Of a stretch of 50,542 nucleotides of DNA, positions 22,543 through 44,910 are shown one piece after another. The notes under the pieces are model-generated. The model was given only the letters and a program-made list of their open reading frames with translations. It searched no databases and had not been told where the DNA came from. Location of the stretch: assembly GCA_028715545.1 (NCBI GenBank), contig JAQURP010000003.1, forward strand, positions 1 through 50,542, in the 5' to 3' direction. The DNA is from Methanocellales archaeon. GTDB taxonomy: Archaea; Halobacteriota; UBA148. The position numbers were made by a program, and so were the translations under genes. Position 1 is the stretch's first letter. Every line of letters starts with the position of its first letter.

Positions 22543-22563
22543 GTTGTGGGGAATATCAGAGAT

Positions 22564-23376: not shown

Positions 23377-23383
23377 TCTAATC

Positions 23384-29577: not shown

Positions 29578-29589
29578 GGAGGTGAAAAA

Positions 29590-30597
29590 ATGTCCAACTT
29601 AAAATTTAAAAACGTTCTAATAATAGGTGGTGCTGGTTATGTCGGGAGCGCTTTAGTGCCAAGTATGTTGAAAAAGGGCTATAACGTGACCGTTTATGAT
29701 CTATACCTTTACGGAGATGTCTTCTCAAATTTAGAAGACATCCCAAACCTTACACAAGTAAAGGCCGATATCCGAAATAGAGAAAAGCTGATTGAGGCTT
29801 CAAAGGATATCGACGCGATAGTACACCTCGCATGCATCTCCAACGATCCGAGCTATGAGCTTGACCCCGCTCTGGGTAAGTCTATAAACTATGATGCCTT
29901 TTTCAACGTTCTTGAAGCGGCGGAAAAGAACAACATCAAACGGTTCATATATGCTAGTTCATCGAGCATCTATGGCATAAAAGAGGAAAGAGACATAAGG
30001 GAAGATGCGTCCTGCGAGCCCTTGACGGATTATTCAAAATACAAGTTGGAGTGCGAGAAGGAGTTATTGGAGTTTGGGAAGGTGCACGAGATGGAGCACG
30101 TGATAGTGAGGCCCGCAACTGTATGCGGGTACACGCCCAGACTGCGGCTTGACTTAGTTGTGAACATCCTGACGATCAACGCACTGGTCAATAGGAAGAT
30201 AAAAATTTTTGGTGGGAACCAACTAAGGCCGAACATCCATATCAAAGACATAGTTAGGGTGTATGAGCTGCTTCTTTCTGCACCAAAAGAGAAAATCAAT
30301 GGTCAGATATTCAATGCAGGCTATCAAAATTATTCCGTAGAAGAACTTGCTAAAAAAGTGAAAAGCGTCATAGGGGACCCAAAAATCGAATTGGAGTCTG
30401 TACCCTCGGATGATATTCGATCCTATCATATCAATTCCGATAAGATACGGGATGTGTTGGGATTTGAACCAAGATATACAATTGAAGATGCTGTACGAAG
30501 TCTTGTAGATGCTTATGGGAAGGGCTTGATTGAAGATGGTTTAAAGAATCCACTTTATTACAATATCAAGATGATGCAAAAAGTCAACTTAAGATGA
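29590..30597 (+). CDS. NAD-dependent epimerase/dehydratase family SDR
   Basis: IIGGAGYVGSAL, ASSSSIYG, YSKYK (YxxxK). Strong GGAGGTGA RBS upstream. Its stop overlaps the start of the E1 alpha gene (ATGA). Confidence 0.75.
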   Translation: MSNLKFKNVLIIGGAGYVGSALVPSMLKKGYNVTVYDLYLYGDVFSNLEDIPNLTQVKADIRNREKLIEASKDIDAIVHLACISNDPSYELDPALGKSINYDAFFNVLEAAEKNNIKRFIYASSSSIYGIKEERDIREDASCEPLTDYSKYKLECEKELLEFGKVHEMEHVIVRPATVCGYTPRLRLDLVVNILTINALVNRKIKIFGGNQLRPNIHIKDIVRVYELLLSAPKEKINGQIFNAGYQNYSVEELAKKVKSVIGDPKIELESVPSDDIRSYHINSDKIRDVLGFEPRYTIEDAVRSLVDAYGKGLIEDGLKNPLYYNIKMMQKVNLR

Positions 30598-31580
30598 AAA
30601 TGAACAGCAAAACATTTCGTTCGTTCTTATATAAAATGCTGAGGATTCGAATGGTTGAAGAGAAGATAGTAGAGTTGTACCCAGAGCAAGAGATAAGATG
30701 CCCCACACACCTATCTATAGGTGAAGAAGCAACTGCAGTCGGCGTGTGCGAGAATTTAAGACAAGACGACATGGTATTTGGCTATCATCGTAGTCATGCA
30801 CATTACTTGGCAAAAGGCGGCAACCTCAAAGCATTTATGGCTGAACTGTATGGTAAAGCCACTGGGTGTTCGAGAGGCAAAGGTGGTTCCATGCATCTCA
30901 TAGATATTTCTGTCAATTTTTTGGGTACTACACCGATTCTAGGGGGGACCGTCCCACTAGCAGTTGGCGCAGCATTATCTTCACAGATGCAGGGTAAGGA
31001 CAATATTGCTGTTGCTTTCTTTGGAGATGCTGCTGCAGAGGAAGGAATAATTCACGAGAGCCTCAATTTTGCCTCTTTGAAAAAGTTGCCCGTTTTATTT
31101 GTCTGTGAAAATAATCTGTACTCGGTTCAAACTCCTCTTTCAGCTCGACAACCAGAAAGGGAAATCTATTTACTCGGCAAAGCGCATGCAGTGGATTCTT
31201 ACTTGGCGGATGGTTACGACGCACTAAAGGTGTACGAGATAGCCAAAAAGGCCGTTGAAAAAATAAGGGCTGGCAATGGACCGATATTTTTGGAATTATT
31301 AACCTATCGATGGCGTGAACATTGTGGCCCAAACTATGATTTTGAACTCGGATATAGGAACGAGGTCGAGTTCCTGAAATGGAAGGAGAAGGATCCCATA
31401 AAAAAGCTCAAAGAAGAGATGTTAGAGGCAAATATCCTATCAAATGAAGAGTTTGAAGGGATGAGAGAAGAAATAAATAGGGAAATAGAAGACGCTGTAT
31501 CCTTCGCAAAGGATAGTCCATTCCCGGAAAAAGACGAATTATATAGCAACGTATACTCAGAGCAGGGACATGAAAAGTAA
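30594..31580 (+). CDS. ThDP-dependent 2-oxoacid dehydrogenase E1 component, alpha-subunit-like
   Basis: FFGDAAAEEGIIHESLNFASLKKLPVLFVCENNLYS (GDx(n)NN ThDP-binding motif), HLSIGEEA and YRWREHCGP. 328 aa. Confidence 0.85.
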   Translation: MKMNSKTFRSFLYKMLRIRMVEEKIVELYPEQEIRCPTHLSIGEEATAVGVCENLRQDDMVFGYHRSHAHYLAKGGNLKAFMAELYGKATGCSRGKGGSMHLIDISVNFLGTTPILGGTVPLAVGAALSSQMQGKDNIAVAFFGDAAAEEGIIHESLNFASLKKLPVLFVCENNLYSVQTPLSARQPEREIYLLGKAHAVDSYLADGYDALKVYEIAKKAVEKIRAGNGPIFLELLTYRWREHCGPNYDFELGYRNEVEFLKWKEKDPIKKLKEEMLEANILSNEEFEGMREEINREIEDAVSFAKDSPFPEKDELYSNVYSEQGHEK

Positions 31581-32649
31581 TAGAATAATTAGCTACATGG
31601 AAGCTGTAAGGGAAGGCATTGATTTATGCTTGGAGAAATACCCCTCGGTATTCATCATAGGTCCTGGGGTACCTGATCCAAAAGGTGTCTTTGGAACAAC
31701 GTTGAACCTTGTCGACAAATATGGACCCGGCAGGGTTTTGGACATGCCCCTGTCTGAAAACGGAATTACTGGTGTTTGTATTGGGGCTGCTTTGACTGGG
31801 ATGAGGCCAATTATGGTGCATCAGAGGATGGATTTCTCCCTCCTGGCAATTGACGAACTAATAAATAATGCCGCAAAATGGCATTACATGTTCGGTGGAT
31901 GGTGTGAAGTACCGCTTGTGATTCGGCTTATAATCGGTCGCGGATGGGGGCAGGGCGCACAGCACTCACAAAACCTCCAGGCGTTGTACGCACATATTCC
32001 TGGCTTGAAAGTCGTTATGCCCACCACTCCTTATGATGTCAAAGGCCTGTTAATTTCGAGCATAGAGGACAACAATCCCATAATATTTATCGAACACCGC
32101 TGGTTGTACAATATGTGTGAACACGTACCTGAAGCGATGTACCGAGTGCCGATTGGTAAATCCAAAATTGTCAGAGAAGGTGAAGATATAACGATTGCCT
32201 CCACATCGTATATGACTATAGAGTCCATTAAAGCTTCAAGAATCATTGAGAATTTAGGAATCTCTCCGGAAATAGTTGATATTCGAACAATAAAACCGCT
32301 TGACACTAATTTGATTATTAAATCTGTAAAAAAGACAGGCAGATTACTAGTCATAGATTCCGGATGGAAAAGCGGGGGAATTGCAGGCGAAGTTATAGCT
32401 AGTGTGGTTGAGGAGGCTTTTGATTCCTTCAAATCTAAACCTCAACGGATTACTCTACCAGACATCCCTACACCCACCAGTCATTCTCTAACAAGGCATT
32501 ATTATCCGACCTATGTAGATATTGCAAATAAGATAGCGACTATGGCGGGAATGGGGACGGAAAAAGCTGAGTTGAGAAAAATTTTAAAATCCAAAAAATA
32601 TGACACCCCATCGGATATACCCCACCTCTCTTTCACAGGACCGTTTTAA
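31570..32649 (+). CDS. ThDP-dependent 2-oxoacid dehydrogenase E1 component, beta-subunit-like
   Basis: ISYMEAVREGIDLCL ... RVLDMPLSENGITGVCIGAALTGMRPI ... IRTIKPLD is the transketolase-like Pyr plus C-terminal domain pattern. 11-nt overlap with the alpha gene. Confidence 0.85.
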   Translation: MKSNRIISYMEAVREGIDLCLEKYPSVFIIGPGVPDPKGVFGTTLNLVDKYGPGRVLDMPLSENGITGVCIGAALTGMRPIMVHQRMDFSLLAIDELINNAAKWHYMFGGWCEVPLVIRLIIGRGWGQGAQHSQNLQALYAHIPGLKVVMPTTPYDVKGLLISSIEDNNPIIFIEHRWLYNMCEHVPEAMYRVPIGKSKIVREGEDITIASTSYMTIESIKASRIIENLGISPEIVDIRTIKPLDTNLIIKSVKKTGRLLVIDSGWKSGGIAGEVIASVVEEAFDSFKSKPQRITLPDIPTPTSHSLTRHYYPTYVDIANKIATMAGMGTEKAELRKILKSKKYDTPSDIPHLSFTGPF

Positions 32650-32682
32650 TAGTTTTATATAGAGTGACGACCTAATCTTGGA

Positions 32683-32910
32683 GTGATAAAAGTGATTTTA
32701 AGCTATGGGGACTTTTTGCAAGCTTCACACGAAGGGTTTGCTGAACTGGGACTAGAAGAAAAGCTGAGGACTACAAATAAAGCTCTATACAGGGCGTCGA
32801 TATGGTATGCCAAACGCAGTGGAAGTATAGTCCATCGAATGCTTGTGGAAAAGCTTTCAGTGCTTGTTGGAAAGTTGAAAGAAAGAGACGAAAGGTATGA
32901 GGATATTTAA
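32683..32910 (+). CDS. Small hypothetical ORF (upstream member of the duplicated leader pair)
   Basis: 75 aa with a GTG start. Its C-terminal KLKERDERYEDI matches KFKRDERHEDI, encoded at about 21300-21335 upstream of the heptose module. Coding status uncertain. Confidence 0.3.
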   Translation: MIKVILSYGDFLQASHEGFAELGLEEKLRTTNKALYRASIWYAKRSGSIVHRMLVEKLSVLVGKLKERDERYEDI

Positions 32911-33028
32911 AAGGGGCGTTAAGAAAGCGGTCGAAACACTTGGCAAAAGCGAAGCTGAGGGGACATCCATATGGGTGCCTCAGTTGAAGCAGAATCTAAA
33001 AGATTCCGACTATGTCTTCTGGCTAGGT
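32881..33028 (+). repeat. Copy 2 of the duplicated leader segment (paralog of 21306-21453)
   Basis: Contains an intact 47-codon ORF (32897-33040: MRIFKRGVKKAVETLGKSEAEGTSIWVPQLKQNLKDSDYVFWLGMVW*). About 40% aa identity and roughly 70-75% nt identity over the first 60 nt to copy 1, judged by eye. Confidence 0.7.
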
Positions 33029-33088
33029 ATGGTGTGGTGAAATATGGTGGTTCTTTTGAAGCAGTATCGATAATTTTAGGTGTAGAAG

Positions 33089-34078
33089 ATGAATAAAATA
33101 GCAGTGATAGGTAGCAATTCTTTTTCTGGAAGCCATTTCATAGATATGCTTCTGGAAGAGAGGGATTCAGAAGTTCTTGGACTTAGTAGGTCTCCTGAAA
33201 AAAGCGCCTTGTTTCTTCCATACAAGAAGCAAGACACTTCCCGATTTAGATTCTTCCAAATGGACTTGAACAGGGATATTGATAAAATAATGGACCTATT
33301 TGATATTGAAAAGCCAGAGATGATTGTTAATTTTGCTGCACAGAGCGAGGTAGGTCCAAGTTGGGATCATCCTGAACAGTGGTTCCGTACAAATTGCCTT
33401 GGAATAGTTAATCTTACCAATAAACTAAAGGATAGAGAGTATTTCAAGAGATATGTTCACATCTCATCACCCGAAGTCTACGGTACTTGTCTAGGTATAG
33501 TCAAGGAAGACGCCCCATTTAACCCAAGCACACCCTATGCCGCGTCAAAAGCCGCTGGAGACATGTTTATACAGGTGTTAATCAAGAATTTTAATTTCCC
33601 TGCAATACTCATAAGGTCCACTAACGTTTATGGCCCCGGCCAGCAATTATTCAAAATCATTCCTAGGTCCATAATCTATATAAAAATGGGGAAAAAGATA
33701 GCACTGCATGGCGATGGACTCGCGGTAAAATCCTATATCCACATCCGGGACACCTCTCATGGCGAACTGGCGGCTATGGAGAAAGGGCGTCTAGGAAGCA
33801 TCTATCATCTCTCACCAGAGAGTGGATATGCGGTGCGCGATGTTGTGCGCAAGATCTGTGACCTTATGGGTCGTGACTTCGAGGCATCTACGGTCTCAGT
33901 AGGCGAGCGATTGGGTCAGGATGCTGCGTATGTGATTGATTCTTCGAGAGCACGCGATGAACTTGGCTGGTACCCAAAGATTACGCTGGACGAGGGGCTG
34001 GCTGATGTGATTGACTGGGTGGAGGACTATTGGGAGCAGATTCAAAAAGAGCCTCTGGACTATATACATAAGCCGTAA
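33089..34078 (+). CDS. NDP-hexose 4,6-dehydratase-like extended SDR
   Basis: IAVIGSNSFSGSHF (variant Rossmann motif), ISSPEVYG, STPYAASKAAGD (RmlB-like YxxxK block) and TNVYGPGQ. Confidence 0.7.
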   Translation: MNKIAVIGSNSFSGSHFIDMLLEERDSEVLGLSRSPEKSALFLPYKKQDTSRFRFFQMDLNRDIDKIMDLFDIEKPEMIVNFAAQSEVGPSWDHPEQWFRTNCLGIVNLTNKLKDREYFKRYVHISSPEVYGTCLGIVKEDAPFNPSTPYAASKAAGDMFIQVLIKNFNFPAILIRSTNVYGPGQQLFKIIPRSIIYIKMGKKIALHGDGLAVKSYIHIRDTSHGELAAMEKGRLGSIYHLSPESGYAVRDVVRKICDLMGRDFEASTVSVGERLGQDAAYVIDSSRARDELGWYPKITLDEGLADVIDWVEDYWEQIQKEPLDYIHKP

Positions 34079-34095
34079 AAAGAGTGAGTAATGTA

Positions 34096-34947
34096 ATGAT
34101 TGGGTTAAGCACGACATATTATGCAACAAAAGGGTGCTCTATTTATGATTCTGTTTTAAGAGCGGTAAATTTAGGTTTTGACGTTGTTGAATTAGGTACC
34201 GCACATATGTATGAGGATAACGCTTGGGATGTTTTACACAAGATAAAGAGAGATTTCCCAGATAGTGCTTTTTCCGTCCATAACCTATTCCCCCCTCTTA
34301 AGAATAAAACCTGGTTTAACCCCGCGGACGGTTTATGCTCTGTTAACAAAAAAATTATTGACCGTTTATTTAAGACCGCTTCGATATTAGGGGCTCTAGT
34401 TATAAGTATACACCCCCCCGTTCTTAATGAGATCTGTTTGAGCGGTAAAGTGGCCGGCAATTTCGACAAACCCCAAATAGGCAAGCCTAAAGACGAGGAG
34501 ATAAGTAGAAAGAATTTCACCCAATTCCTTGAATATATAAACAAGAGGTCTGAAGAGATTAATACGAGGGTGCTTATTGAGAATATGAGCACCTCATTTG
34601 TAAACGCCCTTCTTTCTACAAAAGATAATTTTTTAGAAATATTCGATAAATTCGATAATATCGGCTTGCTTTTAGATGTCGGGCATGCTTTGCAATGCGA
34701 AAATCTTCATGAATTATTAGAATTAAATGACGATATCTTTGAATTACATCTCCATGATGTTGGAGAGACACCGGAGAGGAAAAAGTGGGCTCATTTACCC
34801 GTGAAGGATAAATTATATTTTGAAACCCTAAAGAAGATTACAAATAAGAACTCTGTGCTTTGGGTCTTTGAACATGGCGCAGATGTTTTTGAAGACGAGA
34901 TCCTGGAAGAGAAGAAACTATTAGAGAAGTTTTTAGGAGGGGCGTGA
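34096..34947 (+). CDS. Sugar (phosphate) isomerase/epimerase, xylose-isomerase-like TIM barrel
   Basis: GFDVVELG, ISIHPP, VLIENM, LLLDVGHA and ELHLHD are spaced as in AP_endonuc_2 / xylose isomerase-like barrels. ATG 34096 preferred over GTG 34084. Confidence 0.7.
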   Translation: MIGLSTTYYATKGCSIYDSVLRAVNLGFDVVELGTAHMYEDNAWDVLHKIKRDFPDSAFSVHNLFPPLKNKTWFNPADGLCSVNKKIIDRLFKTASILGALVISIHPPVLNEICLSGKVAGNFDKPQIGKPKDEEISRKNFTQFLEYINKRSEEINTRVLIENMSTSFVNALLSTKDNFLEIFDKFDNIGLLLDVGHALQCENLHELLELNDDIFELHLHDVGETPERKKWAHLPVKDKLYFETLKKITNKNSVLWVFEHGADVFEDEILEEKKLLEKFLGGA

Positions 34948-34954
34948 GGAGAAA

Positions 34955-36616
34955 ATGGCATTATTAAATCGTGACGCAGGTGAAACGGAAAATAACATTA
35001 AGGTACTTTTGGTGACTCCAATAAGTGATCTTAGCTTTATGAACCTCACATGTGCACCACCAATTGGGCTGTATCGTGTCAGGAACTATCTGATATCCAA
35101 GGGCATATATTGTGATATTCTAGATTTAGATCTGGATCGTACACTTGAGAATAAATATTTACGTCTGGTTGAGCAAGGTGTCTATGATGTGATCGGTGTC
35201 AGTGTAAGCCATCAGAATATACTTTCAGACCTCAAGACATTGTGGAGGTTTCGAGAGGCTAGTAGAAAGAGTGGTAAGAGGTGCGTATTTATCTCTGGGG
35301 GACAAGAAGCAAGCCTCAATTATACGCAGTGGTTGGAAGCTGGCATTGATCTCATTTTCTTAGGTTACCCTGAAAAAAGACTATATGAATTTATTTCACG
35401 TTTAGATCGTCAAAGAGATGATGATATAGGGGAAATAGTCAGGGATATTCCTGGAGTTGCATACAAAGAGAAAGATGAACATTTTGTCTTTCGCCCAGCA
35501 AATATTTTAACTCCAAAGGAATTTAGAGAATTATCATTCGACAATGTCAAGAATTTAGATATCCCATTTGATGATTATTGGGCCGCTGTACGTAAAAGTG
35601 CGGATAATCTTGATTTTCATGGTAACATATTCATTGTTGAAACAGTGAGACTTTACACATCAAGCCATTGTGCTCATAATTGCGGCTTTTGTACCTCGCA
35701 GGTTTTTCTTCCTGTATGTCAAAATAAGAAATTTCCAGTAATTATGCTCTCAGCTTCTGAGGTCTATGAGTTAGTCCTACATCACATTAGAAGATATGGT
35801 GCAAAAGGCTTTTTGTTCTGTGATGATGATTTTTTAGTCGGAAATAAGGGCGGGTTAGACCGTGCAGTTGAATTCTGTAGATTAATAGTCGAGGCAAAGA
35901 ATAACGGTTTGATTCCTGAAGATACAACGTTTAATTGCCAAGCCAGAATATCCGACTTCTTGATAACTCAAAAAAAGCTAAATTTGGAGCTTATGGATGC
36001 ACTACATCAAGCTGGATTTCATGGTATAGGGGTAGGTGTAGAGACCTTTTCGGACAGCTTATTAAAATGCCCCTCGGTCAATAAAATAGGTGTTACTGAA
36101 ACGGATTGCTACAATGTTTTAGATGCTTTGTTACAGAAAAAACTGGTTCCGACGATGAATATTATAATTGGGATACCTGAGAGCACCTGCGATGATGTCA
36201 TCCACTCAATGCAGATGGCAGTAAAATACCTCCTAAAGGGCTGCCAAGTTGCGGTCACCATAGTGCTGTTCTCATTCCCTGGTGCACCAATTTATAATTC
36301 GAATTCCTATGACTTTAGCACAATAGAATGGGTAAATCCTGAAACGAACAAAGTTTTGATTATTAAAGACCATGTCCTACCAAATGAGCCCAAGATAGCC
36401 AATATACTCGAGAAGATACAAGACGCATCCGCCGAAGAACTTCGTAAATTCAATATGCAATATCCTTGGCTGGAAGATTCAGCAATTCCAAAGCCACTTC
36501 AAGGCTTGGCTATCTTTATAAGTGTTGCAAAACTTTTAGGTAGACAGGACGTTGCAGAAGAATTCATAGAAGTTGCACACAATATTATCAAAGAGGAGGA
36601 GCTAAAAATTGGATGA
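34955..36616 (+). CDS. B12-binding-domain radical SAM enzyme (class B, methyltransferase-like)
   Basis: N-terminal Rossmann-like block (IKVLLVTP ... PPIGLYRVRNYLISKGIYCDILDLD ... VIGVSV). Radical SAM cluster motif CAHNCGFC (CxxxCxxC). 553 aa. Confidence 0.8.
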   Translation: MALLNRDAGETENNIKVLLVTPISDLSFMNLTCAPPIGLYRVRNYLISKGIYCDILDLDLDRTLENKYLRLVEQGVYDVIGVSVSHQNILSDLKTLWRFREASRKSGKRCVFISGGQEASLNYTQWLEAGIDLIFLGYPEKRLYEFISRLDRQRDDDIGEIVRDIPGVAYKEKDEHFVFRPANILTPKEFRELSFDNVKNLDIPFDDYWAAVRKSADNLDFHGNIFIVETVRLYTSSHCAHNCGFCTSQVFLPVCQNKKFPVIMLSASEVYELVLHHIRRYGAKGFLFCDDDFLVGNKGGLDRAVEFCRLIVEAKNNGLIPEDTTFNCQARISDFLITQKKLNLELMDALHQAGFHGIGVGVETFSDSLLKCPSVNKIGVTETDCYNVLDALLQKKLVPTMNIIIGIPESTCDDVIHSMQMAVKYLLKGCQVAVTIVLFSFPGAPIYNSNSYDFSTIEWVNPETNKVLIIKDHVLPNEPKIANILEKIQDASAEELRKFNMQYPWLEDSAIPKPLQGLAIFISVAKLLGRQDVAEEFIEVAHNIIKEEELKIG

Positions 36617-37823
36617 ATCGAAACTTGCCATCCATGGTGGGCCCCCAATAAGGAGCAAACCGCTCCCCTATAGGAAGCTTTTTGGAAAAAAAGAATTAGA
36701 AGCGGTTACGAAAGTTTTCGAAGATAGTTGGCGAGAGGGGGTGGATTTTGGTTTCCAGGGAAAATATGAGAAACTGTATACCGACAAATTCTGTGAGTTT
36801 CAAGGAGGGGGGTTCGCTGATGGTGTAAGCTCTGGAACGGCAGCCGTCTATCTTGCATTAAAGGTTCTCTATCTTGAGCCAGGGAGTGACGTTATTACCT
36901 CTCCTGTCACAAATCCAGGTAGTATCTCCTCCATCATATTACAAGGTATGAACATCGTTGTTGCGGATTCTCAACCAAATACCTTTCTTTTGGGTCCAGA
37001 TGAGTTCGAGGCAGCCTTGACGCCTAATACCCGTGCTGCGGTTTTAACTCATTCTGGTGGGTATCCCATTGATATGAATCCAATAGTGGAAATAGCTGAG
37101 TCCAAGGGAATCAAAATAATCGAAGATGGTTCACAGGCCCACGGAGCTCTCTACAAAGGAAAGAGAGTTGGACGTTTCGGAGACATTGCCGCTTTTTCTA
37201 CCATGTTTTCCAAGACTCTCGCAACTGGTGGTTGCGGAGGTCTTGTCTATACGGAGAACGAAGAATACTATTGGCCTATTCGCTCGCATGCGGATAGGGG
37301 TAAACCCTTTCACATCTCTGACTTTAGCCAGAGGAGGTTTGATGAATACCTGTTCCCTGCGTTGAATTTTAATCTCGACGAGCTTTCTTGTGCCATTGGT
37401 CTTTCAACTCTTTCTCGGTTACAGAAAACGATCGATAAACGTTTTGAAATAACCAGAAAAATTGATGAAGCTCTTGATGCATCGTCAGTCGTATCCCCCG
37501 CCTTGAAGCCCCAATATGACTGTAAACCCTCAATATTTTTCCATACTGTTATGGTTGACGTTGACAAGCTTAAGGTCTCAAAAAAGGAATTTGCGGAGGC
37601 CGTGGCTGCTGAAGGCATTTGGGTTAATCCTGATTATCGTGAAGTTGTCTCTGAGTGGAAGTGGCTCCAGAGTTACTTGAAGAGAGGAACACATACCCCA
37701 AATGCCTCGGATTTCCGGGATAGGACCTTTAACATCCTCCTTAATGAACGATTTTCAGACGAGGACATCGAGGATGTGATCGCGAGTATTCTGAAAGTAG
37801 AATCTGTTCTCGCAAAGACATAA
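36609..37823 (+). CDS. DegT/DnrJ/EryC1-family PLP-dependent sugar aminotransferase
   Basis: LAIHGGPP start, IEDGSQAHGA, and FSTMFSKTLATGGCGG with a Lys retained in the PLP-binding region. TTG start at 36609 overlaps the upstream stop by 8 nt. Confidence 0.85.
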   Translation: MDESKLAIHGGPPIRSKPLPYRKLFGKKELEAVTKVFEDSWREGVDFGFQGKYEKLYTDKFCEFQGGGFADGVSSGTAAVYLALKVLYLEPGSDVITSPVTNPGSISSIILQGMNIVVADSQPNTFLLGPDEFEAALTPNTRAAVLTHSGGYPIDMNPIVEIAESKGIKIIEDGSQAHGALYKGKRVGRFGDIAAFSTMFSKTLATGGCGGLVYTENEEYYWPIRSHADRGKPFHISDFSQRRFDEYLFPALNFNLDELSCAIGLSTLSRLQKTIDKRFEITRKIDEALDASSVVSPALKPQYDCKPSIFFHTVMVDVDKLKVSKKEFAEAVAAEGIWVNPDYREVVSEWKWLQSYLKRGTHTPNASDFRDRTFNILLNERFSDEDIEDVIASILKVESVLAKT

Positions 37824-37915
37824 GGGGCTTTTGCTCGCACCAGCTCAATGAAAGTGGCAACTTGATGGTATCAAAGGGGTATCCTTCATGCTAGCTGGCA
37901 GAAAAGATATTATAA

Positions 37916-39052
37916 GTGCATATTCCTCTGCATATATTAAGAATTATTGATCTGGGGAGTGAAAAAACGAGTAAAGAAGTTTTCCATAATAAGCATGAGG
38001 CTTTTACTGAAGAAGCGTTTAACACACCAGGCATGCTTCCAGACAGATATGTTTTTGTTCTCACCAATCTTTGTAATCTGAAATGCGGTTTTTGTTATCA
38101 GAAAAAAAATTCAAAAAAAGATGCCATGAATGCAGAAGAATGGATAAATTTAGCAAAACAGCTCCCTAGTTACGCTCGAGTTACATTTACAGGGGGTGAG
38201 CCCTTCGTCTTTCCAAGCTTTAAAGACGTTTTCTCATACGTTGCGGAGAGATTTAATTGTAACATCATTTCAAATGGGATATTATTAACTGAGGAAAAAA
38301 TCGATTATATCCTTTCTTTTCCAAACTTCAAAGTGCTTTCTTTATCAATAGACGATGTTGGAAATGCCATTAGAGGAGTCACACCCGCACAATGGGGTCA
38401 TCTAAAAAAGATGATGAAATACTTCACCAAAAAAAGAGATGCGATTAATCCCGATTGCATTCTGGATGTTAAGACACTGGTTTTAGATGAAAATGCTGAG
38501 GATATTTTTAAAATTTACAAATATTTCGTAGAAGAGTTAAATGTCGATACACATGTATTTCAATTTTTAAAAGGTTCATCAATCCAACATGCTGATTCCA
38601 TGTTCGAGTTTAAAGATCTCTTAAAAAAGTCTCCCTCTTCGATCTATAAAAAATTTGACATAATCAAGGAGCAGTTAGAGTTAGTGCGGCAGTATAACGT
38701 GCGTAAAGGGAAAGTCTCTTTCATACATCCCAAGGTAGATTCTTTAGTCTCGGAAAATACATTATCCAACATTGATCTCCTTAATAACCCAGATCACGTG
38801 AAGGAGTTGTACTTGCCATGCAAATTCCCTTGGTCAAGCGTTCACATCAACTGTGATGGAACTCTCTTTCCTTGTTTGGCAGTCTCCATGGGGAATGTCA
38901 AAAAGTCCCCCCTATCCGATATAATCAACAGTGAAGAGTTTTATGAATTCAGGGAACTTATCAGGAGAGAAGGCACGATTGCGGCGTGTAATCGCTGTGG
39001 ATGGTTACGACCAAATCAAGTAAATCTAAATAATCCTGAGGTTTATTCATGA
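37916..39052 (+). CDS. Radical SAM enzyme with C-terminal Cys-rich SPASM/twitch-like domain
   Basis: LTNLCNLKCGFCYQ (CxxxCxxC), GGEPF, and the C-terminal CKFPWSSVHINCDGTLFPC ... ACNRCGW. Start uncertain (GTG 37916 or ATG 38033). Confidence 0.8.
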   Translation: MHIPLHILRIIDLGSEKTSKEVFHNKHEAFTEEAFNTPGMLPDRYVFVLTNLCNLKCGFCYQKKNSKKDAMNAEEWINLAKQLPSYARVTFTGGEPFVFPSFKDVFSYVAERFNCNIISNGILLTEEKIDYILSFPNFKVLSLSIDDVGNAIRGVTPAQWGHLKKMMKYFTKKRDAINPDCILDVKTLVLDENAEDIFKIYKYFVEELNVDTHVFQFLKGSSIQHADSMFEFKDLLKKSPSSIYKKFDIIKEQLELVRQYNVRKGKVSFIHPKVDSLVSENTLSNIDLLNNPDHVKELYLPCKFPWSSVHINCDGTLFPCLAVSMGNVKKSPLSDIINSEEFYEFRELIRREGTIAACNRCGWLRPNQVNLNNPEVYS

Positions 39053-39924
39053 CTAAGGAAGTTATCATTCTCGGTAGTAACGGATTCATCGGAAGTCGCT
39101 TACTGAAAAATTGTTCTATGAAAACATCTTATGAAGTCAGGGGATATTCCCGTGAAGAATGTGATCTACTATCTTTAGATTCAATCAATAGTGCCTTACC
39201 ATCAGTAACTTCGGATTATGTAATAATAATGACTTCTTCTATAACTAGGCTCAAAGATAACACCTATAATTCCATGATAAAGAACATCGCTATGGCGGAG
39301 AATATTGGCAGATTTATAAAAGAGCGTCTGGTAGGCCAATTTATTTTTTTAAGCACGGTTGACGTTTATGGGTTTGTTAAAAGTAAAATAAATGAGAAAC
39401 TCCCGCCTGATCCCAAAGATTACTATGCTATATCCAAGCTTACAAGTGAGTTCATTCTAAGAAAATATTGCTCAGAGAGTAATATCCCCCTTTTGATTTT
39501 GCGACTTTCCGGAATATATGGCCCGGGAGATGAAGGTAAAAGCACCATAAACCGTCTTTTTAGGTCTGCAGTAGAAAAGAATAAGGTCACTATTTGGGGT
39601 GATGGTACGGATAAACGTGATTACGTTTATGTTGATGACATTTATAAAATCATAAATGAAGCAATCATGAAAAAATCAAATAGAACAATAAATGTAGCAA
39701 CAGGTAGAAGCTACTCGATTCTTCAAATTATAGATATGATAAAATCCTTGTCTCTATACAAATTTCAGGTTGAATTTAGATCAAAGGCTAGTAACGGTGA
39801 AAAGAGGATAGAAGATATGATATTTGATTGTTCTTTATTAATGGAGGAATTTCCTAATTTGCAACTAACAGAGCTTAAAGAAGGAATATCGCGTTATATA
39901 TCTCATTCTTTAGGGAGGGTATAA
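39049..39924 (+). CDS. Short NAD(P)-dependent sugar epimerase/reductase (SDR)
   Basis: IILGSNGFIGSRL, YAISK (YxxxK), IYGPGDEG and WGDGTDKRDYVYVDD. ATGA overlap with the upstream radical SAM gene. Confidence 0.7.
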   Translation: MTKEVIILGSNGFIGSRLLKNCSMKTSYEVRGYSREECDLLSLDSINSALPSVTSDYVIIMTSSITRLKDNTYNSMIKNIAMAENIGRFIKERLVGQFIFLSTVDVYGFVKSKINEKLPPDPKDYYAISKLTSEFILRKYCSESNIPLLILRLSGIYGPGDEGKSTINRLFRSAVEKNKVTIWGDGTDKRDYVYVDDIYKIINEAIMKKSNRTINVATGRSYSILQIIDMIKSLSLYKFQVEFRSKASNGEKRIEDMIFDCSLLMEEFPNLQLTELKEGISRYISHSLGRV

Positions 39925-41051
39925 TGTATTTTGACAGTATTTTTGTTGAATTGACAAGTGTATGCGATATGTCGTGCGAGTTTTGTCCCAATAGTACTAT
40001 GAGTCGGCCAAAAAAGCATATAGATTTTGATTTATTTTTGAATATTATCGATCAAATAGTTGCAAACCATCTGACTAAACATATAAAGCTTGCTGCACTA
40101 GGTGAGTCCCTTTTGTATCCCAAGTTATTAGAGGCTATTAAATATTGTACAGAAAAAAATTTAGTAACTAGTATGTTCACTAACAGTTTGTTATTAACAA
40201 CTGATTTATACCAAAAATTGGTCGATAGTGGATTGAAAGGGATACAGATCAGCCTTCAGGACTTGACAGAAGATTCATTTGTATATAGGCATGCGAAGCG
40301 CAAGATAAGTTATTCTTCATTTTATCAAAATGTAATTAAGTTAATTGATTATCATGTAAATCATAATATCCCTATTCCTATGGTAATTTGTATAATGTTT
40401 TCTAAGCCGCAGTGGATATCCAGCGAACTGTGGGATTTACCGGCGATAAAAGAGAGTACAAAATATGTAACAGTTTTATCACAGATGTTTGTGGATGAAA
40501 TGAATAAAATAGCATATAAAAATAATGTTAAATGTTATTTAAACAAAAGATCATTTGGTTTTTCACTACGAGCTTTAAATGTTTTTAAAAGCAGAGACAT
40601 TAAAATAATGGACAATGTGTTTTTACATATGACTCCCCTAAATCCTGAATTATTTAATACGAGAAAAAAATTAGATGGGGTGCTTGGCAACAAGATTAAG
40701 CTGGTAAAAAGAACAAAAGGTTCATGTCCCTCTTTAGCAGAACCTATGATATTATCCAATGGTTCTTTTATCCCATGTTGTATAGATTGTCTTGGGGAAT
40801 CGGCTATGGGTAAAGTTACTACCGAGAACTCATTAATTTCGATAATAAATAGTGAAAAATATCAGAATTTAATTAAAGGATTTAAAAATCATAATGTTAT
40901 CAATCCCGTTTGTCAGGAATGTAAAGGAAAATTGGTCTATAAAAATCCCTTTTCTAGATTGGTATATTTAATTACTTCATTTAATATATATACCTTGATT
41001 GCCATATCTATTCGAAAATGGCACTCTTTATGGAAATTGTTAAAAAAATAA
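39924..41051 (+). CDS. Radical SAM enzyme with SPASM-like Cys-rich domain and C-terminal hydrophobic helix
   Basis: LTSVCDMSCEFCPN (CxxxCxxC). C-terminal CPSLAEPMILSNGSFIPCCIDC ... PVCQECKG. Terminal segment LVYLITSFNIYTLIAISI looks like a membrane anchor. TAATG overlap with the upstream SDR. Confidence 0.8.
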   Translation: MYFDSIFVELTSVCDMSCEFCPNSTMSRPKKHIDFDLFLNIIDQIVANHLTKHIKLAALGESLLYPKLLEAIKYCTEKNLVTSMFTNSLLLTTDLYQKLVDSGLKGIQISLQDLTEDSFVYRHAKRKISYSSFYQNVIKLIDYHVNHNIPIPMVICIMFSKPQWISSELWDLPAIKESTKYVTVLSQMFVDEMNKIAYKNNVKCYLNKRSFGFSLRALNVFKSRDIKIMDNVFLHMTPLNPELFNTRKKLDGVLGNKIKLVKRTKGSCPSLAEPMILSNGSFIPCCIDCLGESAMGKVTTENSLISIINSEKYQNLIKGFKNHNVINPVCQECKGKLVYKNPFSRLVYLITSFNIYTLIAISIRKWHSLWKLLKK

Positions 41052-41204
41052 ATGAAGCGAAAGAGCCGTGAAATCAACCCCAGTTTTATAACTACTGGAA
41101 AAAGGTTTTTATTTTCAAAACATAAATTCTGTGCAAAGCGTTTAGCTGGTAAAAAAGAAGTTTTAGACGTAGGATGTGTCGATGTCTTTGCCAATAACCT
41201 ATAG
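41052..41204 (+). pseudogene. Truncated 5' fragment of a class I SAM-dependent methyltransferase
   Basis: A 50-codon ORF (MKRKSREINPSFITTGKRFLFSKHKFCAKRLAGKKEVLDVGCVDVFANNL*) ends inside motif I (VLDVGCG expected). It is followed by about 350 nt with no ORF. Confidence 0.5.
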
Positions 41205-41481
41205 TAAACGCTTAACTCTCTATCAATCTAAGATCAGGAGTTGCAGTAGATGGCAAAAACAACCAACAATATCATAAAGGACTATAATAATAAACTATAT
41301 TATCTATTTCGTTCCCAAAATTCAAATTCCTGCAAAGAATAGGCTCATTATTTGAGGTGACGATGAAGGGGCTTTGGGGCACAATTTGCGAATCTCCTTT
41401 CTAATGGCAGGTTTTTTCGACTTTACTGGCTTATAGGAAATATTAGTTTATTTTTGTCCCAAAGCTATAAACGGGATTTCA

Positions 41482-41545
41482 TTTATATTAATGTATATGA
41501 TATATGATGATATACGATATATTATATCTTTGTATTTAAAGGAGG
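41482..41545 (+). promoter_or_regulatory. TA-rich candidate promoter/operator region plus GGAGG RBS upstream of 41558
   Basis: TTTATATT at 41482-41489. Tandem ATATGAT ATATGAT, then GATATAC and GATATATTATATC (a 6-1-6 palindrome). GGAGG at 41541-41545, 12 nt before the ATG. Confidence 0.3.
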
Positions 41546-41557
41546 AAAACTACTGAA

Positions 41558-42217
41558 ATGGTAGAAATAAACTTGCTTGAAAAATATCCGAGCTCAAAGA
41601 GACCCGTTGAAGAGAGAGCAATACAAAGAACCGCAGAGGATGTAGCACTCGCAAAGCAATTTGGTAAAGAGTATTTCGACGGAACCAGGATGCAAGGTTA
41701 TGGTGGATACTATTACCATGAAAGATTTTGGACTGAAGTGGTCAAAGATTTCATCAAATATTATGGACTAAAAGAAAACAGCAAAATACTGGACGTGGGT
41801 TGTGGGAAAGGATTTATGTTGCACGATTTTAGGAGAGCAATACCAGGTGTAACTGTAAGTGGAATAGACATATCTCAATATGCTATTGATAATGCGATGG
41901 AAGATGTAAAACCATTTTTACAAATTGGAAATGCTAAGGATTTAAGTATGTTCAAATATAAAGAATTTGATTTAGTGATTTCAATAAATACGGTCCATAA
42001 TTTAAAATTGGAAGAGTGCAGGCAAGCACTTAAGGAAATACAGCGTGTCGGAAAAGATGCATTTATAACAGTGGATGCATGGCGGAGGGAAGAAGAGAGA
42101 GAAAGACTGCATAAATGGAATTTAACTGCTGAGACGTACATGCACGTGGATGACTGGAAAAAGCTATTCACAGAAGTTGGCTATATGGGAGACTATTACT
42201 GGTTTATCGTCGAGTAG
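41558..42217 (+). CDS. Class I SAM-dependent methyltransferase
   Basis: ILDVGCGKGFMLHDF (motif I), FDLVISINTVHNL (motif II/III region). 219 aa. Confidence 0.8.
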   Translation: MVEINLLEKYPSSKRPVEERAIQRTAEDVALAKQFGKEYFDGTRMQGYGGYYYHERFWTEVVKDFIKYYGLKENSKILDVGCGKGFMLHDFRRAIPGVTVSGIDISQYAIDNAMEDVKPFLQIGNAKDLSMFKYKEFDLVISINTVHNLKLEECRQALKEIQRVGKDAFITVDAWRREEERERLHKWNLTAETYMHVDDWKKLFTEVGYMGDYYWFIVE

Positions 42218-42283: not shown

Positions 42284-43327
42284 ATGATAACAAAAGCTGC
42301 CGTATTATATAAGATTGGTGACCCTTTGGTCATTGAAGAGTTGCAAATACCTGAGTTGCAGCGTGGTCAGGTGCTTGTAAAGTTGCTATACGGTGGAGTA
42401 TGCCACAGTCAATTGAACGAGATAAAAGGATTCAAAGGGGAGGATAAATATATTCCCCATACACTGGGGCATGAGGGTTCAGGGGTTATTGAAAAAATTG
42501 GTCCAGGCGTAACAAAAATTAGAGAGGGGGACTATGTCGTCTTGTCGTGGATAAAAGGTCCTGGATTGGACGCACCTTCATCGCATTATATAAACAGCAA
42601 GAATGGTAAAAAAATCAATTCTGGTGCTATTTCAACATTTAGTCAGTTCGCAATTATCTCTGAAAATCGATTAATAAAAATATCAACAAATTTACCTCCT
42701 GATAAGGCAGCACTTCTGGGTTGTGCGGTTCCTACTGGAGCTGGAATTGTAAGGAATACTTTAAAGGCTAAAGAAGGCGAGACAATCGCAGTTTTTGGTA
42801 TTGGAGGGATAGGATCCAGCGCTGTTTTGGCTGCAGATTTGATGAAATGCTCCAAAATTATCGCTGTTGATATTCATGAACACAAGCTAAAGCTTGCAGA
42901 GGAGCTGGGTGCTACACATACGATCAACTCCAAGCGGGATGACGTAGTTGCTTCGATAAAACACATAACAGGGGGAATAGGGGTTGATTACGCTATCGAA
43001 GCCACGGGTGTAAAAGAGGCGATGGAATTGGCGTTTAGTTCGATTAAGGATTTGGGGACAGCAGTAATCGCTGGCAATTTGAAGCATGGCGAAAAAATCT
43101 GTATAGATCCATTTGATTTAATTAAGGGCAAAAAGTTATTAGGAACGTGGGGTGGTGAAACAAAACCAGAACGTGATATACCACTCTATGCGGAGATGTA
43201 TCTCTCGGGGAAGTTGAGACTTGATAAGCTGATAACTACCAAATATGGGTTAGAGAACATCAATGATGCATTTGCAGATCTTGAAAATGGGAAGGTTATG
43301 AGAGCTTTGATCGGTCTATTGCAGTAG
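42284..43327 (+). CDS. Zn-dependent alcohol dehydrogenase (MDR superfamily)
   Basis: GVCHSQLNE ... GHEGSGVIEKIGPGV (catalytic Zn ligands) and VFGIGGIGSSAV (GxGxxG). 347 aa. Confidence 0.85.
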   Translation: MITKAAVLYKIGDPLVIEELQIPELQRGQVLVKLLYGGVCHSQLNEIKGFKGEDKYIPHTLGHEGSGVIEKIGPGVTKIREGDYVVLSWIKGPGLDAPSSHYINSKNGKKINSGAISTFSQFAIISENRLIKISTNLPPDKAALLGCAVPTGAGIVRNTLKAKEGETIAVFGIGGIGSSAVLAADLMKCSKIIAVDIHEHKLKLAEELGATHTINSKRDDVVASIKHITGGIGVDYAIEATGVKEAMELAFSSIKDLGTAVIAGNLKHGEKICIDPFDLIKGKKLLGTWGGETKPERDIPLYAEMYLSGKLRLDKLITTKYGLENINDAFADLENGKVMRALIGLLQ

Positions 43328-43451: not shown

Positions 43452-44063
43452 ATGCCAAATTTTCGAACACAATTTGTAAAAGAATATCTAAGTAATGTTA
43501 TTCAACTTCTGACAGAGATGGAAGAGGATGCGATATCAAAGATAGATGTTTTAGCAACAGAATTACTTAAAGCGAGAGAAAATGGGAAGACCATTTTCAT
43601 AATGGGAAATGGAGGAAGTGCCACGACCGCATCTCATTTCGCCGGGGACCTTTCAAAGGGCACGATAGTGGAGGGATTCCCACGGTTTAGAGCAATTGCC
43701 TTGACAGATAACATCCCTAATATGCTTGCCTGGGCTAATGACAATGGTTATGAATATATTTTTGTAGAACAACTGAAGAATTTAATGGAGCAGGGAGATG
43801 TAGTAATTGGAATCAGCGGTAGCGGCAATTCCGAAAATATTATTAGAGCAATAGAGTATGCAAATGAGCATAATGCCGTCACAATAGGACTCTCAGGATT
43901 TTCAGAAAACAATAAACTTATGAATACTGCAAAGATTAATATTCACGCCCCCAGTTCATGCATGCAAAGGGTGGAGGACATCCATTTAGTGCTTCAACAT
44001 CTATTGATTTCGCTTATAAGAGAGGAGATGAAGCATGAGATAATCTCCAAGGATGGCCTATAG
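43452..44063 (+). CDS. gmhA: Sedoheptulose-7-phosphate isomerase (SIS domain, GmhA-like)
   Basis: IFIMGNGGSATTASHFAGDL and VIGISGSGNSENI. About 200 aa, the typical GmhA/phosphoheptose isomerase layout. Confidence 0.85.
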   Translation: MPNFRTQFVKEYLSNVIQLLTEMEEDAISKIDVLATELLKARENGKTIFIMGNGGSATTASHFAGDLSKGTIVEGFPRFRAIALTDNIPNMLAWANDNGYEYIFVEQLKNLMEQGDVVIGISGSGNSENIIRAIEYANEHNAVTIGLSGFSENNKLMNTAKINIHAPSSCMQRVEDIHLVLQHLLISLIREEMKHEIISKDGL

Positions 44064-44910
44064 GGGAGAAATGAAATTGTTAAAAGTGCTAATAGATATT
44101 TGGAGGTGTGGGAATACTCTGTTTGCAGGCACATGGGTAAGTAAAATTCCAGGGGTATCAAGACTGCACACTTACTTGGCAGCTTCGATTCTTAATGGAA
44201 AAACTCATGAGGTAGATGGTCAGAAAATGGTGGCTGTTTTTGATCCAGTAACTAAAGATTTATTATACTACACGAATAATTACGAACCCCTCATTTCCTC
44301 TCTTTTCTGCTCCATACTTGAAGAGGGTATGGTAGTTCTGGACATTGGTGCTTCTTTAGGTTATTACACATTACTTGCTGCAAAGCGTGTGGGTGGTGAG
44401 GGGGTGGTGATATCATTTGAACCGGATCCCGTTGCTTTTTGTGGATTGTTAGAAAATATTCGAATTAATGGATGGAAAAATGTTCGTGCATTCCAGTTTG
44501 CGGTTTCTGATTCCAATGGGGAAAGGAAAATGGGCAATTTGATGGCACATAAAAGTTTCGCAATCAAAAATAACACTGTTGGTATTATTACCGTAAAAAC
44601 AATCTCTCTGGATTCCTTTTTAGATGTTGATCCTGACATAATTAAGATAGATGTTGACGGAGCAGAGCTAGAGGTTATAAATGGAATGAAAAAGATTTTG
44701 GCTAAAGGAAAAGCGAAGATAATATGTGAGGTTAATCCTTCCCACCTCTCTTCTTTGGATTACAGTGCCGAAAAAATTGAAGAAATTCTCAAACAATACA
44801 ACTATAATATTTATTCGATAACTGAAAAAGGATTAATTCCTGTAACTTCTTTTGAAAATATAAAAAACGAAAGTGTTTGTGATACGTATTTTTTTACAAA
44901 GGAAAAGTGA
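44053..44910 (+). CDS. FkbM-family methyltransferase
   Basis: VLDIGASLGYYTLLAA, SFEPDPVAF, FAVSDSNG and IKIDVDGAELEVING are the canonical FkbM blocks. Confidence 0.8.
   Translation: MAYRGEMKLLKVLIDIWRCGNTLFAGTWVSKIPGVSRLHTYLAASILNGKTHEVDGQKMVAVFDPVTKDLLYYTNNYEPLISSLFCSILEEGMVVLDIGASLGYYTLLAAKRVGGEGVVISFEPDPVAFCGLLENIRINGWKNVRAFQFAVSDSNGERKMGNLMAHKSFAIKNNTVGIITVKTISLDSFLDVDPDIIKIDVDGAELEVINGMKKILAKGKAKIICEVNPSHLSSLDYSAEKIEEILKQYNYNIYSITEKGLIPVTSFENIKNESVCDTYFFTKEK

Follow-up and report, generated by a model that had tools for sequence, protein, structure and literature searches.

What is made where three radical S-adenosylmethionine (SAM) enzymes are encoded in a row with sugar-modifying genes, and do such genes constitute a pathway of their own? 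The question is raised by a locus of a Methanocellales archaeon (contig JAQURP010000003.1, assembly GCA_028715545.1), of which we analyzed positions 1 to 50,542, a stretch of 50,542 nucleotides (nt) referred to here as the window. Seven plus-strand genes between positions 33089 and 41051, designated c1 to c7 in their order, had been described in a sequence-only reading as a sugar-tailoring cassette with three radical-SAM enzymes. Radical-SAM chemistry on sugars has so far been described almost exclusively for antibiotic biosynthesis in cultured actinomycetes and bacilli (BtrN, DesII, GenK, AprD4 and BlsE). Judged by conserved gene neighborhood, the seven genes are not one fixed cassette; they are three modules that recur independently in more than 100 sugar loci.

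To place the genes in context, we screened some 120 bacterial and DPANN archaeal loci related to the window by tblastn with all of its proteins. This set includes 31 genome loci with a homologue of c3, 80 metagenome loci and several contigs with a homologue of c5, and three further contigs containing c7; most are short metagenome fragments, cited below as L with a number. The full gene order was found only in contigs approximately 99.9% identical to the window, among them the 83.7-kb contig JAQTVF010000001.1 (99.9% identity), which carries the NCBI label of a metagenome-assembled genome (MAG) of a Methanocellales archaeon; c7 is also 100% identical to a protein of a MAG labeled in this way. 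In the other loci the genes occur as separate modules, and the proposal of a discrete seven-gene cassette was accordingly abandoned.

The first module (A) ties c1 to genes outside the seven. An extended short-chain dehydrogenase/reductase (SDR) resembling c1 at 33-67% identity stands beside a pair of pyruvate-dehydrogenase-E1-like α and β genes in L005, L008, L016, L036, L040, L046 and other loci, and on this neighborhood evidence c1 belongs with the E1α/β pair directly upstream of it in the window. Module B comprises c3 and c4. A DegT-type aminotransferase resembling c4 (43-72% identity) lies directly 3' of the c3 homologue in hosts of four phyla, represented by Nitrospirae (L005), Planctomycetia (L013), Omnitrophota (L025) and Anaeromyxobacter (L027), and in the window c4 is translationally coupled to c3 through an 8-nt overlap. 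De novo clustering of the open reading frames (ORFs) of the c3 loci placed the c3 homologues of 26 loci in one family, accompanied by the DegT family and by the methyltransferase MT219 (gene d1 of the window) in 13 loci each, by an HldE-like fusion (u7 of the window) in 12, by the N half of a transketolase in nine and by a zinc-dependent alcohol dehydrogenase (Zn-ADH) in seven.

Module C is built on c5 and its partner c6. A c6-like SDR lies directly 3' of c5 in 21 of the 30 loci whose c5 homologue is at least 56% identical, and in 4 of the 29 loci below 56%. Companions recorded for the c5 loci include MT219 (36/86), E1α (30/86) and a split transketolase (22/86), and MT219 ranks first among the companions of the c3 family as well as of the c5 family. 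The pair formed by MT219 and Zn-ADH (d1-d2 of the window) recurs in L005, L008, L009, L011, L013, L027, L033, L038, L047, L127 and others, with an intervening gene in L036 and L046. By the same criterion of neighborhood, c5-c7 belong with the methyltransferase and Zn-ADH downstream of them. The order c5-c6-c7 recurs in L126, where it is nested between the transketolase halves and followed by MT219; L089 has the order transketolase N half, c7, transketolase C half, MT219, c5, c6, Zn-ADH; and L127 reads MT219, Zn-ADH, c5, c6, DegT and, further on, a thiamine enzyme with c7 directly after it. The core of L005 is that of the window (GmhA, c1, E1α/β, c3, c4, MT219, Zn-ADH and the HldE-like fusion), without c2, c5, c6 and c7. 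No homologue of c2 was found by tblastn in the 114 loci of the c3 and c5 families, and by its distribution c2 is an accessory gene of isomerase/epimerase fold seen only in this strain; it has no NCBIfam match, and its best hit in a sequence search of the PDB has an E value of 0.028.

The association with sugar genes was borne out by this comparison. Further homologues of the sugar genes of the window are present in 47 of 48 non-redundant c5 loci of at least 6 kb and in most c3 loci, and the sugar-tailoring function proposed earlier is supported by this context as well as by the BtrN match and the glycosyltransferase fusion of the c7 group described below. The presence of three radical-SAM genes, on the other hand, is not exceptional: among 42 related loci with a length of at least 15 kb, three or more such genes occur in 16 and up to seven in one (L012), in counts that are approximate because they derive from iterated phmmer searches and a CxxxCxxC filter on our own ORF calls. 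L012 (a Magnetococcales MAG, 21.6 kb), L023 and L044 have 5-7 predicted radical-SAM genes within ~21 kb of sugar-pathway genes, far above the window. At least four other radical-SAM families are represented in the c3 loci, and in L005 two distinct genes for B12-domain radical-SAM enzymes stand in tandem (8437-9954 and 9998-11599).

The seven genes themselves were confirmed as drawn. Their spacing from c1 to c7 is +5, +7, -8, +92, -4 and -1 nt, and the ORF listing gives coordinates identical to those first proposed, with overlaps of 8, 4 and 1 nt; we regard the genes as real because each radical-SAM protein has many conserved homologues. The two gaps of 439 and 506 nt that had served as the limits of the cassette are not functional boundaries. 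The first (32650-33088, from E1β to c1) is without a recognizable gene or similarity to the related loci, and other gene callers place small ORFs of 41-75 amino acids (aa) there. In the second (41052-41557, after c7), a 50-codon ORF retains approximately 45 N-terminal codons of a class I methyltransferase, including its LDVGC motif, and because this decayed N-terminus lies there the gap represents a gene remnant and not merely a promoter region. The intact counterpart of 228-231 aa was located by tblastx in L036 (8291-8977) and also in L091, L064, L063, L056, L013, L018 and L020. Compared with all related loci, the two gaps contain no conserved small ORF that could encode a precursor peptide, in a survey that did not include the RiPP (ribosomally synthesized and post-translationally modified peptide) recognition element; the sole conserved small ORF is the methyltransferase remnant.

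Base composition is also uneven, with GC fractions of 0.442 in c1, 0.449 in c4, 0.342 in c6 and 0.303 in c7 around a window mean of 0.377. This heterogeneity suggests that the modules have separate origins, and both the GC shift and the methyltransferase remnant fit a mosaic assembled from separate pieces. The functional unit is the region from ~21.5 to 45 kb, that is at least 24 kb, rather than 33.1-41.1 kb, and is followed by glycosyltransferases.

Pfam agrees with the domains proposed for all seven proteins, with the B12-binding domain of c3 scoring just under its cut-off. The motifs CAHNCGFC (c3), CNLKCGFC (c5) and CDMSCEFC (c7) are all found, PF04055 scores 40.0, 62.3 and 58.9 bits for the three proteins against a cut-off of 29.5, and the CxxxCxxC cysteines are invariant in the three family alignments; by these profiles and motifs c3, c5 and c7 are members of the radical-SAM superfamily. 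None of the seven proteins exceeded any equivalog cut-off in an NCBIfam scan. The assignment of c4 as an aminotransferase with its catalytic lysine was upheld by a PF01041 score of 218.8 bits (cut-off 19.8) and by the pyridoxal phosphate (PLP) lysine in ...FSTMFSKTL...; by profile it is a member of the DegT/DnrJ/EryC1-type sugar aminotransferase family, and its best equivalog, PseC, reaches 155 against 423.5. For c6, the sequences GSNGFIG, LSTVDVYG and YYAISK supply the GxxGxxG, Ser and YxxxK elements (PF01370, 132 bits), and in terms of motifs it is an extended SDR with the full triad and dinucleotide-binding motif.

The description of c1 as a 4,6-dehydratase-type SDR holds insofar as it is an extended SDR with 35-40% identity to dTDP-glucose 4,6-dehydratases, and fails insofar as the catalytic Asp of RmlB is absent. 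The residues read S-P-E-VYG in place of T-D-E-VYG, S/T-P-E is kept in 13 homologues, and the TIGR01181 score of 216.7 bits stays well below the cut-off of 365; the S-P-E motif and this score below the cut-off rule out a canonical RmlB. GDP-mannose dehydratase uses T-S-E at this position, and some dehydratase activity of c1 is possible. The S/T-P-E-VYG subfamily (33464-33490, residues 126-134 of c1) has homologues in L005, L008, L046, L053, L082 and L018, and in about half of the homologues YxxxK reads YxxxR, an unusual active site for an extended SDR.

The radical-SAM enzymes c5 and c7 share an architecture. Homologues of c5 form more than 400 clusters with 53-80% identity in bacteria and DPANN archaea, a conservation across two domains of life that points to one defined and common reaction. 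Across 27 aligned members C53/C57/C60 never vary, and among the C-terminal cysteines the same is true of C302, C320, C358 and C361 alone. Homologues of c7 form 15 clusters, a profile search recovers 153 representatives with E<1e-30, and 14 aligned sequences share C14/C18/C21 together with C268, C285, C330 and C333. By their cysteine pattern, c5 and c7 are twitch enzymes of the BtrN type with a single auxiliary cluster and not seven-Cys SPASM maturases; of the SPASM/twitch-like Cys-rich tail first noted in them, the twitch domain with four invariant Cys stands, and the full SPASM set does not.

In profile comparisons the tail of c5 recovers the twitch domain of BtrN (E 2e-8) and its core recovers SkfB and viperin-like enzymes; a structural model (predicted local distance difference test score, pLDDT, 88) matches the folds of SkfB, SuiB, anSME, DesII, BlsE and viperin with template modeling (TM) scores of ~0.5-0.7. 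A role of c5 as a prokaryotic viperin in defense was rejected on a score of 65 bits against a cut-off of 180, the additional twitch domain and the sugar context. Residues 1-42 of c5 (37916-38040) carry a conserved F-H-N-x-H-E-x-F-T-E-K-A-Y segment before the radical-SAM core, in which His24, His27 and Glu28 are nearly invariant; one gene caller truncates this segment in the homologue of L042 (339 aa).

The best solved relative of the c7 profile is BtrN, aligned over both domains (E 1.6e-17), followed by BlsE, PqqE and DesII. The four auxiliary cysteines of c7 align with Cys of the BtrN C-terminal domain, and ~140 residues between the two aligned stretches are unmatched. The terminal hydrophobic stretch noted earlier is present and aligns with the C-terminal end of BtrN, and a membrane anchor is not required to explain it. 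Larger relatives of c7 are extended at the N terminus, in one case by part of a GT2 glycosyltransferase: P0254 (499 aa) is a partial GT2 domain fused to a c7-like radical SAM/SPASM protein, and its sister P0251 weakly matches a C-terminal domain of sugar C-methyltransferases. Such GT2-type fusions tie the c7 clade to glycan metabolism.

Almost the entire window is occupied by one plus-strand glycan locus (Table 1; u and d denote genes upstream and downstream of the seven). From its gene content, the locus is predicted to be a cell-surface glycan locus with steps of nucleoside diphosphate (NDP)-heptose synthesis, two thiamine-dependent systems of two-carbon transfer, methyltransferases and glycosyltransferases. 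Downstream of c7, Pfam and NCBIfam identify MT219, Zn-ADH, a GmhA-like isomerase, FkbM and MetW-type methyltransferases, two GT4 and one GT-C (PMT_2) glycosyltransferases.

Table 1. Features of the window, with positions in the 50,542-nt stretch and the profile support or setting of each.
Feature	Positions	Strand	Support or setting
c1 extended SDR, 4,6-dehydratase-related	33089-34078	+	Pfam GDP_Man_Dehyd/Epimerase 1e-45
c2 xylose-isomerase-like TIM barrel (sugar isomerase/epimerase/dehydratase fold)	34084-34947	+	Pfam AP_endonuc_2 1.6e-15, 57.9 bits
c3 radical SAM with N-terminal B12-binding-like Rossmann domain (class B fold)	34955-36616	+	Radical_SAM 6e-10
c4 DegT-family PLP aminotransferase	36609-37823	+	Pfam DegT 1.7e-64, 218.8 bits
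c5 radical SAM with twitch-type auxiliary-cluster domain	37916-39052	+	Radical_SAM 8e-17, SPASM 1.4e-13
c6 extended SDR of 291 aa, partner of c5	39049-39924	+	Epimerase 2e-38
c7 BtrN-like twitch radical SAM, rare clade	39924-41051	+	Radical_SAM 9e-16, SPASM 3e-8
Class I methyltransferase remnant	41052-41204	+	tblastx
u1 heptose-7-P kinase-like PfkB	21502-22542	+	TIGR02198 329.8 bits (cut-off 345); Pfam PfkB
u2/u3 split transketolase (N half 22546-23376; pyrimidine-binding and C half 23369-24316)	22546-24316	+	Pfam Transketolase_N 2e-61, Transket_pyr, Transketolase_C
u4 fructose-6-phosphate aldolase/transaldolase	24313-24963	+	TIGR00875 326 bits (above cut-off 246)
u5 GmhB-type heptose 1,7-bisphosphate phosphatase	24936-25646	+	NF006506 195.9 bits (above cut-off 178)
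u7 nucleotidyltransferase-PfkB fusion, HldE-like	27055-28572	+	Pfam CTP_transf_like and PfkB
u8, u9 two extended SDRs (epimerase/dehydratase/reductase type)	28573-30597	+	Pfam, NCBIfam
u10/u11 pyruvate-dehydrogenase-E1-like α/β	30594-32649	+	E1_dh 3e-70, Transket_pyr, Transketolase_C
d1 class I SAM methyltransferase MT219	41558-42217	+	Pfam
d2 Zn-dependent alcohol dehydrogenase	42284-43327	+	Pfam, NCBIfam
d3 GmhA-like sedoheptulose-7-phosphate isomerase (SIS)	43452-44063	+	Pfam SIS_2; TIGR00441 109 bits (below cut-off)
d4 FkbM-family methyltransferase	44053-44910	+	Pfam Methyltransf_21 2e-22
Wzx-type flippase	7809-9326		Arn-like region
DegT aminotransferase	13820-15100		Arn-like region
Small GT2	16076-16789		Arn-like region
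GT2 fused to LPG_synthase_TM domain	16840-18588		Arn-like region
PMT_2/ArnT-like GT-C	19304-21073	-	Arn-like region

At the level of protein families, the flanking genes cover every step from sedoheptulose-7-P to an NDP-heptose. Of this set the GmhB-type phosphatase exceeds its cut-off, the kinase falls just short (330 of 345 bits), and the GmhA-like and adenylyltransferase-like domains score below the equivalog cut-offs. The split transketolase may either supply sedoheptulose-7-P or transfer a two-carbon unit in tailoring, and homologous pairs adjoin MT219, c5 and c7 in many bacterial loci. The u7 fusion matches rfaE domain II with 106 bits and domain I with 108 bits in NCBIfam. Its domain order is the reverse of that of HldE, with the nucleotidyltransferase first and a diverged kinase half second, and the separate kinase u1 is much more HldE-like than this half; among the neighbors of the c3 family, only DegT and MT219 are commoner than fusions of the reversed type. 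Homologues of u8/u9 (50-66% identity) adjoin those of u7 in L022, L026, L030, L032 and L060, and in L119 they occur with a more diverged u7 match (29%). The E1-like pair scores 334 bits with TIGR03182 and 316.5 bits with NF006667, and by analogy it may use thiamine to transfer a two-carbon branch onto a keto-sugar. Positions 1132-21073 are occupied by a further sugar pathway, similar to the Arn (4-amino-arabinose) system, which includes, besides the genes listed in Table 1, nucleotidyltransferases, two genes of the UDP-glucose/GDP-mannose dehydrogenase type and several SDRs.

In our interpretation, the products of the seven genes probably tailor a nucleotide-activated sugar, for which a heptose is the best candidate, and the genes are part of a glycan locus extending over at least 24 kb. 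As the substrate, a hexose formed by a 4,6-dehydratase is less likely than a nucleotide-heptose in view of the flanking heptose genes and the missing RmlB Asp of c1. An NDP-heptose would be produced by the flanking genes and oxidized or dehydrated to a keto-sugar by u8, u9 or c1, to which E1α/β would add a two-carbon branch from pyruvate in the manner of AviB1/AviB2 (module A). In module B, c3 would C-methylate an unactivated carbon as GenK does and c4 would transaminate a keto position to give an amino sugar; alternatively, c3 would dehydrate a diol to a ketone that c4 aminates. In module C, c5 would abstract hydrogen from a secondary alcohol carbon and pass an electron to the auxiliary cluster, giving a ketone by BtrN-type chemistry, and c6 with NAD(P)H would reduce this product, resulting in epimerization, or in deoxygenation if water is lost. 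A second oxidation of the BtrN type could be carried out by c7, and its product may be the keto acceptor for thiamine-dependent two-carbon transfer since c7 lies repeatedly inside or beside genes of thiamine enzymes. MT219, other methyltransferases and Zn-ADH would complete the sugar, and the GT4 and GT-C enzymes would install it in the surface glycan. The outcome we predict is a branched amino-(deoxy)heptose carrying C- and O/N-methyl groups.

Several points weigh against this interpretation. The reactions of c3, c5 and c7 are assigned by analogy, including the oxidation of a secondary alcohol by c5 and c7 and the methyl transfer and cobalamin dependence of c3, and the fold search with c5 does not separate sugar from peptide enzymes, the model resembling the peptide maturases SkfB, SuiB and anSME as closely as sugar enzymes. 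The heptose identity of the sugar is read from the gene neighborhood, the reversed domain order and diverged kinase domain of u7 fit it poorly, and the role of the split transketolase may be purely one of precursor supply. The absence of the RmlB Asp from c1 leaves the source of the keto-sugar doubtful. Furthermore, the related loci were picked for having c3 or c5, and the co-occurrence frequencies given above are without background correction. Finally, two results for c3 count against a methylase, namely its PF02310 score and its structural similarity to AprD4.

The homologues of c3 form 114 clusters in which C239/C243/C246 are invariant, and a sequence search of the PDB with either the single sequence or the family profile recovered no relative. 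An AlphaFold (AF2) model with a pLDDT of 89 establishes the class B architecture as the predicted fold: Foldseek matches OxsB and TsrM at E 1e-17 and AprD4 (6fd2) at 5e-15, with CysS and MgmA also recovered. The TM score to AprD4 (0.64, normalized to the target) is approximately as good as that to methylases such as TsrM, and the fold search thus leaves a methylase and an AprD4-like dehydratase undivided. An unlikely but serious alternative is therefore that c3 is a cobalamin-independent radical dehydratase like AprD4, or a partner enzyme like the DesII deaminase, which would convert a vicinal diol to a deoxy-ketone for amination by c4; in the reverse logic, c4 would install an amine that c3 removes. 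The Rossmann-like domain of AprD4 presumably does not bind cobalamin, PF02310 reaches 29.5 bits (7e-7) on c3 against a cut-off of 32.1, and a ketone-forming c3 would account better than a methylase for the conserved, coupled c4 directly downstream. Homologues of c3 in single-cell genomes of Pelagibacteraceae (L030-L032), a group with little cobalamin-dependent metabolism, provide a lead in the same direction rather than a test. Against this alternative, the N-terminal domain of c3 has, in our own reading, an S-x-S and a GG spaced like the S-x-L...GG of the cobalamin motif, the weak NCBIfam matches of c3 are all to B12 radical-SAM methyltransferases, and most c3 homologues carry a precomputed PF02310 domain. 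Most characterized class B enzymes are methylases and methanogens are rich in corrinoids, which also count against it.

A second alternative, which we consider improbable, concerns the substrate and holds that the cassette acts on a cyclitol or aminocyclitol instead of a nucleotide sugar and, much as in the synthesis of 2-deoxystreptamine, makes a head group of the amino-inositol type by means of the DegT enzyme, a BtrN-type dehydrogenase or Zn-ADH, and the IolE/IolI-like barrel c2. The nearest relative of c7 is indeed BtrN, inosose aminotransferases belong to the family of c4, scyllo-inosose 3-dehydrogenase is a weak match of d2 (100 bits), the fold of c2 is common to inosose dehydratase and isomerase, and the sedoheptulose-7-P supplied by the locus is the substrate of C7-cyclitol cyclases. 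However, no cyclase resembling dehydroquinate synthase or inositol-phosphate synthase is present among the annotated ORFs of the window, the locus contains a complete heptose activation set with a nucleotidyltransferase, c2 is absent from all related loci screened, and the companions are typical NDP-sugar SDRs and glycosyltransferases. It is very improbable that c5 and c7 are SPASM maturases of RiPPs, metalloenzymes or sulfatases that merely lie inside a glycan locus, for despite Pfam SPASM matches on both, the SkfB, SuiB and anSME matches that rank first for the c5 core in fold and sequence, and weak matches to many NCBIfam maturase models, those scores fall far below cut-off (e.g. 76 vs 170, 72 vs 380), four conserved C-terminal Cys imply one auxiliary cluster, the flanking gaps lack a conserved small ORF, sugar-pathway homologues and a fixed SDR partner accompany c5, and c7 matches BtrN, BlsE and DesII and has a relative fused to GT2.

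With the tailoring of a nucleotide-heptose as the preferred reading, the novelty of the system can be considered at two levels. The c3, c5 and c7 families are without a characterized or curated member, and their setting in primary surface-glycan loci built around a heptose pathway differs from that of the known cases; the uncultured archaea and bacteria that carry them include Methanocellales, Woesearchaeota, Pacearchaeota, Omnitrophota, Nitrospirae, Planctomycetes, Magnetococcales and SAR11, often with 3-7 radical-SAM genes per locus. A full-text literature search returned no paper on such clusters, a study of C. jejuni HS:19 having proved unrelated, and with no NCBIfam equivalog and no close solved structure the earlier statement that the genes match no characterized NDP-sugar pathway remains valid. 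Beyond this, we tentatively propose, at less than even confidence, that the loci represent a large and widespread pathway family in which several radical-SAM enzymes remodel cell-surface nucleotide-heptoses, or higher sugars made from these by thiamine-dependent two-carbon additions, in which at least one of c3, c5 and c7 performs a reaction new for a nucleotide sugar and whose product is a branched amino sugar new to archaeal glycans. Candidate reactions would then be radical C-methylation of an NDP-heptose, radical oxidation creating an acceptor for chain extension, and radical deoxy-amination. Solving this chemistry would provide new enzymology for C-H functionalization of nucleotide sugars, an account of sugars in environmental and archaeal glycans whose nature is unknown, and biocatalysts for rare branched, methylated or amino sugars. 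The modular organization offers concrete enzyme combinations for joint expression: c1 with E1α/β, c3 with c4, and c5 with c6, sometimes with c7, together with the methyltransferase and alcohol dehydrogenase.

Among known systems, the closest comparison is with BtrN, the 2-deoxy-scyllo-inosamine dehydrogenase of butirosin biosynthesis (PDB 4M7S/4M7T), which c7 resembles in core and auxiliary-cluster domain and c5 in its tail, and which, like both, works beside a DegT aminotransferase. BtrN has ~250-270 aa, whereas c7 has 375 aa with an insertion of ~140 residues, and the core of c5 differs from that of BtrN, its nearest relatives being SkfB and viperin, and is preceded by a conserved N-terminal FHNxHE segment. 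The setting also differs, being an aminoglycoside cluster for BtrN and a surface glycan locus with nucleotide-heptose genes for c5 and c7. With the class B (cobalamin-dependent) radical-SAM enzymes of sugars or nucleosides (GenK, GenD1, Fom3, OxsB and TsrM), c3 shares the Rossmann B12-like domain, the barrel and the CxxxCxxC motif, but it is without sequence similarity to solved members or an NCBIfam assignment, is paired with an aminotransferase and belongs to a primary cell-envelope glycan locus. AprD4/AprD3, a radical-SAM diol dehydratase and its NADPH reductase that effect C3' deoxygenation in apramycin synthesis, are matched by c3 in fold and not in sequence, and c5-c6 copy their logic of a radical SAM enzyme followed by an SDR-type reductase, whereas c3 is followed by an aminotransferase. 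Unlike c5, AprD4 is not known to have an auxiliary cluster domain.

For the two-carbon branch, YerE in yersiniose formation and, by analogy, the enzyme pairs of paulomycin and aldgamycin perform two-carbon branching of 4-keto sugars. The AviB1/AviB2 pair of avilamycin, which is of the E1α/β type, is a precedent for thiamine-dependent attachment of a two-carbon branch to a sugar (PMC4753412). In the window the corresponding pair lies directly upstream of c1, an adjacency conserved in several loci, and in L127 and L038 a thiamine enzyme of the acetolactate synthase type takes its place. The present E1α/β differ from AviB1/AviB2 in their association with heptose genes and radical-SAM enzymes, in the adjoining SDR that lacks the RmlB Asp, and in the presence of a second thiamine system, the split transketolase. 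Tailoring by three radical-SAM enzymes is not known from any heptose pathway, and the literature search on such clusters came back empty. The ADP- and GDP-heptose pathways (GmhA, HldE/HddA, GmhB and HldC/HddC) with heptose tailoring, such as those of Campylobacter capsules, septacidin and hygromycin B, are comparable in that a complete activation set adjoins the cassette, and the locus departs from them in its reversed nucleotidyltransferase-kinase fusion and in its dedicated transketolase and aldolase.

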